NCBI GenBank assembly: GCA_947073645.1
Contig: CAMTMK010000009.1
Span: forward strand, 812-64,811
DNA: 64,000 nucleotides
Reading direction: 5' to 3'
DNA from: an uncultured bacterium
GTDB lineage: Bacteria > Cyanobacteriota > Vampirovibrionia > Gastranaerophilales > Gastranaerophilaceae
Made by a program: the position numbers and the translations under genes. Below, one piece after another: positions 50,100-63,336 of the stretch. The notes under the pieces are model-generated. The model did not search any database and was not told the origin of the DNA. It was given only the letters and a program-made list of their open reading frames with translations. Each line of letters opens with the position of its first letter. The stretch's first letter is position 1.

Positions 50100-51776
50100 A
50101 TGTGCGAACATCAACATCATCACAGAAGTATATTTGACGAGAAATTCTTGATGGGTATTGCGATATTCGGGGCAATATGTTTGGGAGAGTATTTTGAAGC
50201 TCTTGCAGTATTTATTCTGTATAATCTCGGGGAATATTTGCAGGATAAAGCGGTCGAAAAATCGAAAAAATCTATCACAGAACTTATGGATTTAAGACCT
50301 GACAGTGCAAATGTTCTTGTTGGAAATGATATTATCAGCAAATCTCTTGAAGATGTAAAAATTGATGATATTATTATTGTTAAAACGGGTGAAAAGATTG
50401 CGCTTGACGGCGTAGTTATTGACGGGTTAGCTTTTATTGATACATCTGCCTTGACAGGTGAAGCAATGCCGAGAGAGGTTAAGGAAGATGAGGAGGTTTT
50501 GAGCGGATGTCTTGTGGCAAATGGAGTTTTAAAAATCAGAGTAACAAAAACTTTCGAACAGTCTACTGTGTCACAAATTCTTGAACTTGTTGAACATTCT
50601 GGGGTTAAAAAATCAAAAACCGAAAATTTTATAACAAAGTTTGCGCGAATTTACACACCAATAGTTGTTTTATTGGCACTACTTATTGCATTTATCCCGC
50701 CTTTAATTTTGCATACCGGTTTTGCAGAATGGATTAACAGGGCATTGACTCTGCTTGTAATTTCTTGCCCCTGTGCGCTTGTAATATCTGTTCCTCTAGG
50801 GTTTTTTGCCGGATTGGGAGGGGCGTCTAAAAACGGTATTTTAATTAAGGGAAGCAAATATATTGAGGCGTTGGCAAAAGCTGAAACTGTTGTTTTTGAT
50901 AAAACGGGAACGCTTACAAATGGGTATTTTACGGTTGAGGAAGTCGTTTCTTTAAGCGGTGAGAACGTATTAAAGCTTGCTGCAAGTGTGGAAAAATATT
51001 CAAATCATCCGATTGCAAAATCTATTACGAAATCTTATAATGGTGAATTGTTTGAAGTTTCTGATGTTTGTGAAATTGCAGGACAAGGAATAAAAGCAAA
51101 AATCGGTGAAGATGAAATTTTTATCGGAAAAAGTGGTCAAAATGCTGTCAGTGTCCTGAAAAATAATGTTTTAACCGGTTATATTACCTTAAGTGATGAA
51201 CTTAAAATTAATGCAATCAAAACTATTTCCGAGTTAAAGAATACTGTTATGCTGTCGGGAGATATCGATGAAAATGTTCAAAAATTTGCCCAAAAACTTG
51301 GAATAACACATGCGTTTTCAAAACTTCTTCCGCAGGATAAAGTCAAAAAGCTTGAAGAAATTATAGAAAATTCATCAGGTACTGTTTTGTTTGTCGGTGA
51401 CGGAATAAATGATGCACCTGTATTAAGGCTTGCCGATGTTGGTATTGCAATGGGCGGGCTTGGGTCAGACAGTGCGATTGAGGCTTCTGATGCTGTAATT
51501 ATGAATGATGACCCTTACAATGTTGTTGTCGCAATAAGAATTGCACAAAAAACCTTAAAAATCGTAAAACAAAATATTGTTTTTGCATTATCAATAAAAA
51601 TTCTGTTTTTAATCCTTGGTACATTAGGTTTTATGACAATGTGGGGAGCAATTTTTGCAGATGTCGGCGTAACATTGATTGCCGTTTTAAATTCACTTGG
51701 AGCTATGACTCAAAAATATCGAAGAAATGATAGAATTGGTAAGGAAAATTCAATGTACAATCTTCAAGGTATTTAG
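50100..51776 (+). CDS. P1B-type heavy-metal (Cd/Zn/Co) ATPase, N-terminally compact
   Basis: LTGE, SCPCALVIS, DKTGT, HP, GDGINDAP, FADVG; ATG 50100 after AAGGAG. Confidence 0.92.
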   Translation: MCEHQHHHRSIFDEKFLMGIAIFGAICLGEYFEALAVFILYNLGEYLQDKAVEKSKKSITELMDLRPDSANVLVGNDIISKSLEDVKIDDIIIVKTGEKIALDGVVIDGLAFIDTSALTGEAMPREVKEDEEVLSGCLVANGVLKIRVTKTFEQSTVSQILELVEHSGVKKSKTENFITKFARIYTPIVVLLALLIAFIPPLILHTGFAEWINRALTLLVISCPCALVISVPLGFFAGLGGASKNGILIKGSKYIEALAKAETVVFDKTGTLTNGYFTVEEVVSLSGENVLKLAASVEKYSNHPIAKSITKSYNGELFEVSDVCEIAGQGIKAKIGEDEIFIGKSGQNAVSVLKNNVLTGYITLSDELKINAIKTISELKNTVMLSGDIDENVQKFAQKLGITHAFSKLLPQDKVKKLEEIIENSSGTVLFVGDGINDAPVLRLADVGIAMGGLGSDSAIEASDAVIMNDDPYNVVVAIRIAQKTLKIVKQNIVFALSIKILFLILGTLGFMTMWGAIFADVGVTLIAVLNSLGAMTQKYRRNDRIGKENSMYNLQGI

Positions 51777-52629
51777 AGTATACCTGCTGTAAGGTTGAAA
51801 GTTTTTCTTTTTTACTGCCTTCAAGTTTGATTTCTTTCATACACATTCTGTAAATTCTGTCTTTTTTAGGACAAACGGTTGTAAATACAGGACATTCCAG
51901 TAAAATTGCAAACTTTAAAACGCCTATAGGCAGTAAAATTTTATGGTTCAGCAAAGATGCGGGGTATACAGCATTTTGTTGATGAATAGAAATTCTGTCG
52001 CCTGCCATGAATACAAATTCGCCGGCATCAAGTTTTTCTTTAATTTTTATTGCAGTGTCTACGTCAATTTCTTCTATTGGTAAAAGTTCAACATATTTGT
52101 CCTGAAGTGAGATGCTGTTTATAAATTTGTTAAAAATTTCACAGTGTTTTTGCTGTAAGAATACGTTTATTTTAATCTTGGGAACTTTTTTTGATGCAAT
52201 AAAAGCTCTGAGCATTTCTATACATCCGATATGGTTTGTAATGAAAAATGCACCATAACGGTTATTAATCATTTCAATAATTTTATTTTCAACATCTTTA
52301 TTATCAAAGTTTATGTTTGAATAATTTCCGCTGTAAGCAAGCATTTTATCTACAAGTGAGTTTGCAAAGGTGAAAATATGTTTATATGAGTTTAAAATTG
52401 TTGGTTTATATTGTTTGTTGTTTGTATATTCGTACAAATATTTGAAAAATTTTTGTGAATAATTTCTGACATCTTTTGCAGTCAAAAAGGTTCCGAGTGA
52501 TATAAAAAAAGCAATAACTCTTATTGGAAATTCTCCAAAATGTTTGTAAATCCACCAGGTTATTTGAAGACGTTTTACGCCTGCAGATTTTTCTTTTACA
52601 TTAAACCATTTTTTCATCGAACCTGACAT
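51703..52629 (-). CDS. LpxL-like acyltransferase (resembles the acyltransferase half of ApeJ)
   Basis: ITNHIGCIEMLR, MAGDR, FPYQFYHFFDIF. Confidence 0.72.
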   Translation of the reverse strand: MSGSMKKWFNVKEKSAGVKRLQITWWIYKHFGEFPIRVIAFFISLGTFLTAKDVRNYSQKFFKYLYEYTNNKQYKPTILNSYKHIFTFANSLVDKMLAYSGNYSNINFDNKDVENKIIEMINNRYGAFFITNHIGCIEMLRAFIASKKVPKIKINVFLQQKHCEIFNKFINSISLQDKYVELLPIEEIDVDTAIKIKEKLDAGEFVFMAGDRISIHQQNAVYPASLLNHKILLPIGVLKFAILLECPVFTTVCPKKDRIYRMCMKEIKLEGSKKEKLSTLQQVYSKYLEDCTLNFPYQFYHFFDIFES

Positions 52630-61392: not shown

Positions 61393-62107
61393 AACAATTT
61401 TAATAACAGGGTCAAGTCGCGGAATCGGTAAAGCTTCGGCTGTTATGCTGGCTCAAGCGGGATATAATATCGTTTTGCATTGCTCAAAAGATGTTTCAAG
61501 ACTTGAAAATTTAAAATCTGAAATCGAAAAATTTAATGTTACTTGCAGAACTCTTGCGTTTGATATTAAAAACAGAGCCGAAACTGAAAAAGTTCTTCTG
61601 GATGATGTTGAAAAACACGGAATATATTACGGAGTGGTTCTGAATGCGGGTATTGCAAAAGATAATCCGTTTCCCGCAATGGAAGATTTTGAATGGGATG
61701 AAGTTATAAATACAAATTTAAACGGATTTTATAATGTTTTGAAACCGCTCAGTCTGCTGATGATTCAAGCTCGTCAGGGAAGAATTATTACAATGTCTTC
61801 TATATCGGGACTTGCAGGAAATAGAGGTCAGGTTAATTACAGTGCTTCAAAAGCCGGAATTATCGGGGCAACAAAAGCGCTTGCACGTGAACTTGCAAAA
61901 CGAAAAATTACTGTAAACTGTATTGCCCCGGGGGTTATAGAATCCGATATGACACAAGATATTCCAGATGAAGTTATTAAACAAATACCGCTTAAAAGAA
62001 TGGGAAAACCGCAGGAAGTAGCAAGTCTTGTTAAATATCTTATGAGCGAAGATGCAGGATATATTACAGGGCAGGTAATTTCTGTTAACGGAGGTTTGTT
62101 GATATAA
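61385..62107 (+). CDS. fabG: 3-ketoacyl-ACP reductase (ApeQ-like FabG paralog)
   Basis: TGSSRGIG, NAG, GNRGQVNYSASK (YxxxK), GQVISVNGG. Confidence 0.88.
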   Translation: MNKTILITGSSRGIGKASAVMLAQAGYNIVLHCSKDVSRLENLKSEIEKFNVTCRTLAFDIKNRAETEKVLLDDVEKHGIYYGVVLNAGIAKDNPFPAMEDFEWDEVINTNLNGFYNVLKPLSLLMIQARQGRIITMSSISGLAGNRGQVNYSASKAGIIGATKALARELAKRKITVNCIAPGVIESDMTQDIPDEVIKQIPLKRMGKPQEVASLVKYLMSEDAGYITGQVISVNGGLLI

Positions 62108-63336
62108 TGGCAAAACGTGTTGTGATTACAGGCATGGCTCTGACATCTCCTCTTGGCTCTAATATTGGCTCTGCTTTTGAAAGACTTAAAGAATATAAAA
62201 ACTGCATAAGATACTGGACTGACTTGGACAGGTTTGATAAACTTAATACACGCCTTGTTGCAACCGTTAAAGATTTTCAAATCCCTGAACATTTTAACCG
62301 TAAAGTGCTTAGAACAATGGGACCTGTATCAATTATGGCAGTTGCAACAGCAGAACAAGCACTAAAAGATGCAGGATTGCTTGGTAATGAAATTATCTCA
62401 TCAAATCAAACAGGTGTGAGCTACGGGTCTTCAAGCGGTTCCTTTGATGCAATTTTTGATTTCTATTCAATGTATAACGATAATAATGTTAAAGTCCTGA
62501 ATTCAGGTTCTTACATTAAAATGATGCCGCAAACAACTGCCGTAAATATTTCATTGTATTTTAAAACAAACGGCAGATTAATCCCTACATCTACTGCTTG
62601 TACTTCAGGTTCTTTAGGAATAGGGTATGCATATGAGATGATAAAAAACGGTTGTCAAACGATTATGATTGCAGGCGGTGCTGACGAAATTCATCCTACT
62701 CAAATCGGTGTTTTTGATACTCTTTTTGCAACAAGTACAAAAAATGATACTCCAAATTTAACTCCGCGTCCTTTTGATAGAGATAGAGACGGGCTTGTAA
62801 TAGGTGAAGGAGCAGGAACTTTAATATTAGAAGAATATGAACACGCAGTTAACCGCGGAGCAAAAATCTATGCAGAAATTGCCGGTTTTGCAACAAATAC
62901 AGACGGTACACATATTACAAATCCGAATAAGGATATGATGCGTGAAGTTATGAAATTGTCTATGCAAGATGCAAAACTTACACCTGCAGAAATCGGATAT
63001 GTAAATGCACATGGTACTGCAACAACTCAGGGAGATATTGCGGAAACTAATGCAGTATATGAAGCATTTAACAAATCAGTTCCGATATCTACTCTAAAAA
63101 GTTATATAGGGCATACACTCGGAGCCTGCGGTGCAATTGAAACAATATTGTCAATACAAATGCTTAATAATAATTGGTATTGTCCGACTTTAAACCTCGA
63201 AAATATTGATTCACAATGTGCAGTAGAATTGGATTATATTGTTAATTCCGCACGTACAATTGATACAGAATTTATAATGACAAATAATTTTGCATTTGGC
63301 GGTATTAATACTTCAATTATTTTGAAAAAAGTTTAA
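62107..63336 (+). CDS. Beta-ketoacyl-ACP synthase (ApeR-like)
   Basis: STACTSG, NAHGTAT, KSYIGHTLGACG, NNFAFGG. Confidence 0.9.
   Translation: MAKRVVITGMALTSPLGSNIGSAFERLKEYKNCIRYWTDLDRFDKLNTRLVATVKDFQIPEHFNRKVLRTMGPVSIMAVATAEQALKDAGLLGNEIISSNQTGVSYGSSSGSFDAIFDFYSMYNDNNVKVLNSGSYIKMMPQTTAVNISLYFKTNGRLIPTSTACTSGSLGIGYAYEMIKNGCQTIMIAGGADEIHPTQIGVFDTLFATSTKNDTPNLTPRPFDRDRDGLVIGEGAGTLILEEYEHAVNRGAKIYAEIAGFATNTDGTHITNPNKDMMREVMKLSMQDAKLTPAEIGYVNAHGTATTQGDIAETNAVYEAFNKSVPISTLKSYIGHTLGACGAIETILSIQMLNNNWYCPTLNLENIDSQCAVELDYIVNSARTIDTEFIMTNNFAFGGINTSIILKKV

Follow-up and report, generated by a model that had tools for sequence, protein, structure and literature searches.

The 64-kb window described here, meaning the whole stretch of DNA that was analysed, carries at 51703-63336 a group of 14 tightly packed, adjacent open reading frames (ORFs) arranged in two divergent arms. 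They very likely form a functional ape-type cluster, directing the synthesis of an aryl polyene lipid (APEL), in a mouse-gut bacterium of the family Gastranaerophilaceae. The minus arm holds homologues of ApeC, ApeD, ApeE, ApeF, ApeG, a fusion of ApeH with ApeI (the H-I fusion), ApeL, ApeM, ApeB and the C-terminal half of ApeJ (ApeJ-C), while the plus arm holds homologues of ApeO, ApeP, ApeQ and ApeR (Table 1). An earlier interpretation made from the letters alone, referred to below as the sequence-only reading, had described the same ORFs as an aryl-polyene-like type II polyketide synthase (PKS) cluster. The ORFs that it named all exist where it placed them and are described accurately, and the ape-type assignment is borne out by BLASTP matches to Ape proteins, by shared NCBIfam models and by a tree of the ketosynthases (KSs).

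The reference for this assignment is the ape cluster of E. coli CFT073, which encodes ApeA to ApeR (L009:23728-38749) and was compared by BLASTP with all proteins. Thirteen of the ORFs match one Ape protein apiece, all different, with E values from 3e-7 to 2e-164 and identities of 22-63%; the fourteenth, of 168 amino acids (aa), matches ApeL at profile level only. Since 14 adjacent ORFs match as many different Ape proteins and follow, arm by arm, the gene order of E. coli, the ape identity is confirmed far beyond chance. As a calibration, E. coli Ape proteins and window proteins match the same NCBIfam models, and the curated cut-offs are passed by the ApeR-, ApeQ-, ApeE- and ApeF-like proteins. 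The core set by which Grammbitter et al. define ape clusters (apeOR, apeEF, apeC, apeIP, apeQ and apeM) is complete. In a small neighbour-joining tree, the 367-aa KS groups with ApeO and the 409-aa KS with ApeR, both apart from the housekeeping FabF of the window (657-1910). An exact-sequence look-up of the ApeO-like KS returned no identical record.

Catalytic signatures are intact throughout the cluster, including the HX4D/E motifs of both acyltransferases, the DSx serine of both acyl carrier proteins (ACPs) and the adenylation core motifs. Alignment columns show the Cys-His-His triad in both KSs; the chain-length factor (CLF), as ApeC, has no Cys at the KS active-site position and has the motif SP..F..SVHN in common with it. 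In the H-I fusion, the adenylation motifs TSGSSGTQK and YGSTETG and the C-terminal K can be read from the sequence, and the ApeI domain keeps GHF..P..PGV in the alignment. PF22818 is matched by this C-terminal domain with 26.8 bits, against a cut-off of 28.5, and by relatives with up to 31 bits.

Three of the ORFs encode putative export proteins. The 168-aa protein has no BLASTP match to ApeL and was compared by hhalign with a profile built from six sequences, which also matches the LolA-family structure 8t5j (E 4e-9); it is probably not a lipoprotein, because its Cys is not conserved in relatives. The ApeM-like protein shows weak SecD_SecF_C, HpnN and HAE3 matches, and the ApeG-like protein is without the first ~55 residues of ApeG. 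The gene called an O-methyltransferase in the sequence-only reading does encode a methyltransferase, but that name is merely the one of its Pfam family, and the homologue ApeB is known from the literature to methylate the aryl ring, that is, the head group. Gene calls place the likely starts of four of the 14 ORFs at internal ATGs.

Table 1. Features of the ape-type cluster and its immediate border, with coordinates in the window.
Position	Strand	Feature	Supporting comparison
51703..52629	-	Stand-alone acyltransferase, C-terminal half of ApeJ, LpxL/LpxM/PatA family, 308 aa	ApeJ residues 243-550 of 558, E 4e-25; likely ATG 52617
52614..53666	-	ApeB-like S-adenosylmethionine (SAM) methyltransferase	38% identity to ApeB, E 3e-80
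53670..55598	-	ApeM-like RND/MMPL-type exporter, 642 aa (ApeM, 772 aa)	BLASTP over 671 columns, E 9e-24
55595..56101	-	ApeL-like periplasmic LolA-family carrier, 168 aa, signal peptide	hhalign to ApeL, probability 94%, E 1e-7
56098..57627	-	ApeH-ApeI fusion, 509 aa, adenylating enzyme and hot-dog dehydratase	ApeH E 2e-30, ApeI E 3e-7; Pfam AMP-binding and ApeI-like
57617..58030	-	ApeG-like (COG4648) membrane protein, 137 aa	33% identity to ApeG residues 56-191, E 8e-22
58009..58266	-	ApeF-like ACP, DSI serine motif	50% identity to ApeF; NF003757 109 bits, cut-off 65
58256..58516	-	ApeE-like ACP, DSI serine motif	63% identity to ApeE; NF006617 86.8 bits, cut-off 70
58536..59282	-	ApeD-like PlsC-type lysophospholipid acyltransferase, HPSFID (HX4D)	PF01553 E 2e-15; ApeD E 2e-18; likely start 59270
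59263..59832	-	ApeC-like CLF	PF13723 E 3e-25; ApeC E 1e-13
59833..59855		Intergenic gap between divergent start codons	23 bp, read from sequence
59856..60959	+	ApeO-like elongation KS, 367 aa	34% identity to ApeO, E 2e-70; NF006618 306 bits, cut-off 407
60901..61392	+	ApeP-like dehydratase	PF22817 E 2e-16; ApeP E 1e-12; likely start 60949
61349..62107	+	ApeQ-like ketoreductase (FabG2)	55% identity to ApeQ; TIGR01831 340 bits, cut-off 338.85; likely start 61385
62107..63336	+	ApeR-like KS, 409 aa	53% identity to ApeR, E 2e-164; NF006587 626 bits, cut-off 470
63348..63662	+	Secreted Lys-rich protein, 104 aa, cluster membership doubtful	no family match

Proposed pathway and nature of the product

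The starter, the product, its anchor and its antioxidant role are proposed here from homology with the systems of E. coli and Xenorhabdus, the antioxidant role being the one given in the literature. The H-I fusion, through its adenylating half, would activate an aromatic acid, most likely 4-hydroxybenzoate, and load it onto the ApeE-like ACP. Elongation with malonyl units would then be carried out by the ApeR-like KS and by the ApeO-like KS with the ApeC-like CLF, and in each round the ApeQ-like reductase and the dehydratase pair formed by the ApeI domain and the ApeP-like protein would create a conjugated double bond. The phenol ring would be methylated by the ApeB-like enzyme, and the acyl chains esterified to a membrane lipid by two acyltransferases, the ApeD-like one of PlsC type and the stand-alone ApeJ-C. 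The ApeG, ApeM and ApeL homologues may finally carry the product towards the outer membrane of the diderm host.

Several observations weigh against this assignment and pathway. The ApeO-like KS and the methyltransferase find the right top model but stay below its cut-off; for the methyltransferase this is the FlxJ-family model NF053543, on which it scores 336 bits and E. coli ApeB 470, both under the cut-off of 560. There is no starter-supplying gene of the UbiC/XanB2 or tyrosine ammonia-lyase (TAL) type in the window, though the E. coli cluster is also without one. The absence of the LolB-like ApeN from the window leaves the last export step without explanation, and a thioesterase kept by relatives is gone. 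As to expression, sequencing runs guessed to be RNA (X24, X25, X28 and X29) hold low-depth contigs of 150-500 nt, with 95-100% identity, scattered over both arms and flanks (49500-64000), and share their ‘organism A’ code with several DNA runs that contain the cluster; they fit transcription or DNA carry-over alike and are not used as support.

The absence of an aromatic-starter gene also bears on the nature of the chain. The product could be a non-aryl conjugated or unsaturated acyl lipid built on an aliphatic starter, for instance a chain like the Xenorhabdus C26:5 one or a lipid of ladderane or polyunsaturated fatty acid type, given that the ape machinery has also been proposed in the literature to build a non-aryl conjugated fatty acid. 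The adenylating domain matches its top model, the 4-coumarate ligase TIGR02372, only weakly (85 bits against a cut-off of 335), but E. coli ApeH has the same weak top match (75 bits). The ApeB homologue, whose known role is aryl head-group methylation, is conserved under selection, and neither the cluster nor the annotated flanking ORFs contain radical-SAM or desaturase genes of ladderane type. Such a non-aryl product is therefore improbable, and an aryl polyene remains the expected one.

The sequence-only reading had suggested that the starter might differ from the usual one, for which there is no positive evidence. An operon of pabA and a pabB-pabC fusion (aminodeoxychorismate synthase and lyase) lies 11 kb from the cluster (38349-40489, minus strand). 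A similar Chorismate_bind+Aminotran_4 fusion is found ~5 kb from the cluster genes of a metagenomic scaffold, L012 (L012:21246-21461), but not near the cluster in the genomes UBA791 and GCA_017560095 or in the scaffold L011, all considered below. The pabA-pabBC operon probably belongs to folate metabolism. A 4-aminobenzoate starter, hinted at solely by this proximity, is a distant prospect.

Relatives, surroundings and selection

The host is placed by its sequence relationships in the Gastranaerophilaceae, in agreement with the order, Gastranaerophilales, proposed in the sequence-only reading. Proteins named Ca. Stercorousia faecigallinarum, Ca. Scatousia sp. and Clostridium sp. CAG:768 share 89% identity with the alanyl-tRNA synthetase of the host (alaS, 23265-25895), and Ca. 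Stercorousia is placed in Ca. Gastranaerophilaceae by the NCBI taxonomy. The closest species representative with the cluster is ‘Cyanobacteria bacterium UBA791’, and another relative is annotated ‘Ca. Gastranaerophilales bacterium’. Near-identical DNA occurs in 19 Logan contigs and in numerous metagenome runs from the mouse gut; the H-I fusion is 99% identical in Logan assemblies, which points to the same species.

The same divergent layout, H-I fusion and stand-alone ApeJ-C, with no glycosyltransferase family 2 (GT2) domain, occur in UBA791 (L001, DBIX01000070), GCA_017560095 (L010, JAFYOU010000025) and GCA_011262095 (L008, JAAGKN010000666). Two of these three cluster-bearing metagenome-assembled genomes are labelled Cyanobacteria or Gastranaerophilales. 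UBA791 and GCA_017560095 have the gene order ...L-M-B-J', and their proteins are 41-77% identical to those of the window; the sister genome GCA_011262095 has an identical architecture, also without thioesterase, and protein identities of 83-100%. The cluster had been called rearranged and reduced, which holds relative to E. coli only: the layout, the fusion and the GT2-less acyltransferase are not peculiar to this genome. A scan of genome contigs with a KS as single query found only three loci. Loci from Treponema and Acidobacteriaceae were considered as the same cluster type and set aside, as they share KS and dehydratase genes only.

The components are also found well beyond these genomes. 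For the H-I fusion at least 718 homologues were counted, and precomputed Pfam annotation shows the fused domain pair in all 120 of the homologues listed. Two low-GC metagenomic scaffolds (L011:8340-16107 and L012:9037-16258) carry the arm from the ACPs to ApeJ-C, together with a thioesterase gene and with no CLF or KS genes within 10 kb; the ApeD-like acyltransferase is kept in L011 and missing in L012. Since these scaffolds bear one arm with no CLF or KS nearby, the arms can be unlinked in some genomes. Other metagenomic proteins (P0113, P0402, P0410, P0460 and P0430) display further fusions, among them a 661-aa ApeH-ApeI-4HBT triple fusion and MMPL-ApeJ-C proteins of ~940-1080 aa. The acyltransferase occupies residues 360-658 of a 663-aa metagenomic protein.

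The divergent start codons of the two arms are 23 bp apart, so that the promoter of each arm must partly overlap the first gene of the opposite arm; the spacing is 5 bp in UBA791 and 29 bp in GCA_017560095. A promoter-like TTAACA-N18-TATAAT is present at 59819-59848 on the plus strand, and a weaker site at 59882-59853 on the minus strand. The former ends 8 nt before the plus-arm ATG and would give a nearly leaderless mRNA. The scan of the locus for promoters and terminators gave no excess over chance in AT-rich DNA (74 sites in the whole scan vs 61 ± 9 expected). Within the arms, ORF junctions mostly overlap, by 1-22 nt, the exceptions being a 19-nt gap at 58516/58536 and a 3-nt gap between the ApeM and ApeB homologues.

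On one side the cluster is bordered by genes for a heavy-metal P-type ATPase (49992-51776, plus strand) and an ArsR regulator (49620-49973), and on the other by a transfer-messenger RNA (tmRNA) gene (63732-64000, minus strand) that is cut by the window end and beyond which recA is found in the close relative L004. The 3' ends of the ApeJ-C and ATPase genes overlap convergently by 74 nt (51703-51776). In GCA_011262095 two ORFs (217 and 333 aa) stand in place of the intact ATPase gene, and the adjacent ATP-grasp gene is shortened. The 104-aa protein next to the ApeR-like KS is kept only in the closest relatives, L004 and GCA_011262095 (83% identity, ratio of non-synonymous to synonymous substitutions, dN/dS, 0.12), and is absent from UBA791 and GCA_017560095. 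A 268-aa protein with a weak HD-domain match (47643-48449, minus strand) sits 3 kb past the ApeJ-C end; it is 83% identical to the product of a gene adjoining the ApeR-like KS in GCA_017560095 (L010:3277-4083), where the cluster proteins reach only 41-77%. Farther away, the window holds a tRNA-Arg(TCT) gene (22331-22406, minus strand) and a 1036-aa helicase-like protein (1939-5049, minus strand) with partial matches, far below cut-offs, to the anti-phage helicase models ProA, Hhe and PLuB.

These surroundings have a bearing on whether the cluster is a resident trait of the lineage or an island recently acquired from Proteobacteria or Bacteroidota. Identities of 53-63% to E. coli for the ApeR-, ApeQ- and ApeE-like proteins would suit a transfer, as would flanks that vary between relatives. 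The G+C content of the cluster (0.31-0.36) is nonetheless that of the remaining window, no mobility genes are found among the annotated ORFs at its borders, and its unusual divergent layout is common to UBA791, GCA_017560095 and GCA_011262095. A recent acquisition is accordingly quite unlikely.

Selection can be assessed against the sister genome, from which every cluster gene differs with a Nei-Gojobori dN/dS of 0.02-0.135, at dS values of 0.3-1.1. Such ratios indicate strong purifying selection and argue against a decaying remnant. Under an erosion scenario the cluster would have ceased to yield a product, and GT2, thioesterase, ApeN and ApeA would have been lost as steps of its decay; these four E. 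coli genes or domains are indeed missing, and comparison with UBA791 and GCA_017560095 shows the loss of the thioesterase to be recent. Yet none of the 14 ORFs is disrupted, their catalytic motifs are in place, the sister genome that shows this selection is likewise without thioesterase, the overlapping junctions resemble those of a coupled operon, and E. coli apeK and apeA deletions retain pigment. Decay is thus very unlikely, and the cluster is a real, uncharacterised and probably functional, compact GT2-less variant of a very common family.

Missing functions and the lipid anchor

Four E. coli components, namely the GT2 half of ApeJ (residues 1-242), the ApeK thioesterase, ApeN (DUF3261, LolB-like) and the ApeA lipoprotein, give no significant tblastn match anywhere in the 64 kb. 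The sequence-only reading had reported GT2 half, thioesterase and ammonia-lyase as absent from the cluster, as the tblastn search and the ORF annotation confirm, and had left ApeN and ApeA unmentioned.

UBA791 and GCA_017560095 encode a 4HBT thioesterase of 137-138 aa between the H-I fusion and the LolA-like gene, and the gene is also kept in the scaffolds L011 and L012. The window and GCA_011262095 are without it, which indicates a recent loss confined to the clade of the window; no remnant is present between the two genes, as they overlap by 4 nt. This loss alone is specific to the clade, and the enzyme is dispensable for pigment in E. coli, where an apeK deletion leaves partial pigment and a proofreading role is assumed for the enzyme. 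Its loss should therefore be tolerable. Deletion of apeA in E. coli likewise keeps the pigment.

The absence of GT2 bears on the product. In the Xenorhabdus APEL, the backbone is glycerol-phosphate-N-acetylgalactosamine (GalNAc), to which ApeD adds a conjugated fatty acid; the glycosyltransferase part of ApeJ adds GalNAc and its acyltransferase part puts the polyene on the GalNAc 6-OH. Without GT2, the cluster is predicted to make no GalNAc acceptor. Two GT2 proteins of polysaccharide/teichuronic type are encoded nearby, one fused to a TupA-like ATP-grasp domain (45814-47565, minus strand) and one at 41468-43078 (plus strand). They were considered as substitutes and rejected, having no significant similarity to the ApeJ GT2 half and being unlinked to the cluster in UBA791 and GCA_017560095. 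In GCA_011262095 the GT2-ATP-grasp fusion is represented by separate GT2 and ATP-grasp genes.

The stand-alone form of ApeJ-C is common. All 110 close homologues stand alone and none is fused to GT2. A profile search of 1.84 billion representatives, at E<=0.001, yielded a family of 2788; of its 150 best representatives, classified by protein size, with Pfam confirming one example per fused type, 105 stand alone, 19 are GT2-acyltransferase and 14 MMPL-acyltransferase fusions.

The fold of this enzyme points to the LpxL/LpxM/PatA family. Its motif NHIGCIE is of the HX4E form, with H133 invariant across 48 homologues, and PF03279 is matched by half of the members of its family (7/14). The family sequence profile reached LpxM among Protein Data Bank (PDB) sequences only as a weak match (E 0.57), and the fold search then settled the family: with an AlphaFold2 (AF2) model (pLDDT 84.7, pTM 0.84), Foldseek places LpxM (5knk/5kn7) first, with E 2e-9 and a TM score of 0.60, and PatA next, with E 4e-8 and TM scores of 0.6-0.7.

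Given the missing GT2 and this fold, the polyene's acceptor is probably a glycolipid, or another molecule offering a hydroxyl, that the cluster does not itself make. The different anchor put forward in the sequence-only reading is in this sense a reasonable and testable proposal, strengthened by the predicted LpxM/PatA-like fold and by the published glycosyltransferase role of ApeJ. Because a diderm envelope and lipid A genes are reported for Gastranaerophilales, export to the outer membrane through the ApeG, ApeM and ApeL homologues is plausible, though the LolB-like partner is missing. A more specific scheme may be envisaged, tentatively, in which the stand-alone ApeJ-C attaches the aryl polyene straight to an existing envelope glycolipid (a sugar of lipid A or lipopolysaccharide, LPS, or another housekeeping glycolipid) instead of a GalNAc-phosphoglycerol anchor, and export proceeds with no LolB-like partner, in Gastranaerophilales and in the many uncultured gut bacteria with a GT2-less layout. 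If true, this would define a new class of aryl polyene lipids, possibly a pigmented LPS.

Comparison with known systems

Aryl polyene clusters are considered the most widely distributed among the families of biosynthetic clusters in bacteria, and genome mining has already revealed them in strict gut anaerobes, namely Treponema, Victivallis/Lentisphaerae, Prevotella and Verrucomicrobia. An ape cluster in one more gut anaerobe is thus not surprising, and the gain is incremental, since the core chemistry can be predicted and the cluster would be labelled automatically by antiSMASH. The Gastranaerophilales, relatives of cyanobacteria in the gut, are uncultured diderms that live by fermentation, and their specialised metabolism is hardly described. 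Full-text literature searches found no paper linking aryl polyenes to Melainabacteria, Gastranaerophilales or Vampirovibrionia, nor any describing the clusters of UBA791, GCA_017560095 and GCA_011262095. The sequence-only reading, which considered the lineage not noted for this pigment, is supported in this, and of the two circumstances it saw as fatal to its proposal, a cluster both widespread and already described in the class, the first is true of the order and the second finds no trace in the literature searched. A conserved and selected ape cluster in Gastranaerophilales adds to the cases already published for strict gut anaerobes.

Flexirubin clusters of Bacteroidota have in common with the window a type II PKS with CLF, a methyltransferase of FlxJ/ApeB type, a short-chain dehydrogenase/reductase and Lol-like export genes. 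A flexirubin-type cluster, with the polyene esterified to a dialkylresorcinol, is however the least probable of all the alternatives, for although FlxJ is the best family model of the methyltransferase and the reductase reaches 275 bits with that of FlxB, these models give E. coli ApeB and ApeQ equal or better scores, the reductase passes the FabG2 (ape) cut-off and not that of FlxB, and neither the dialkylresorcinol genes DarA and DarB nor an ammonia-lyase, tyrosine-specific or other, are found among the annotated cluster and flanking ORFs of the window.

LpxM, the secondary acyltransferase of lipid A, and PatA, the mannoside 6-O-acyltransferase of Mycobacterium, are the best structural matches of the 308-aa enzyme (TM 0.60-0.72) and have the HX4D/E motif in common with it. 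Unlike them, at identities of only 12-16%, this enzyme presumably uses a polyene-ACP as acyl donor.

The closest parallels remain the APEL clusters of E. coli CFT073 and Xenorhabdus doucetiae, which have the same core set of C, D, E, F, G, H, I, L, M, B, O, P, Q and R. Within C-I, L-M and O-R the window keeps the gene order of E. coli, but the E. coli genes form one operon, whereas those of the window form two divergent arms with apeB moved behind apeM. Compared with E. coli, H and I form a fusion, only the acyltransferase half of ApeJ is left, ApeK, ApeN and ApeA are missing, and the ApeG, ApeM and ApeC homologues are shorter. The sole full APEL structure known is that of Xenorhabdus, whose anchor needs the GT2 domain absent here. 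Set beside it, this compact version of 14 genes, which lacks a sugar transferase, a thioesterase and a LolB-like gene, could offer a route to the minimal anchoring and export machinery of aryl polyene lipids.

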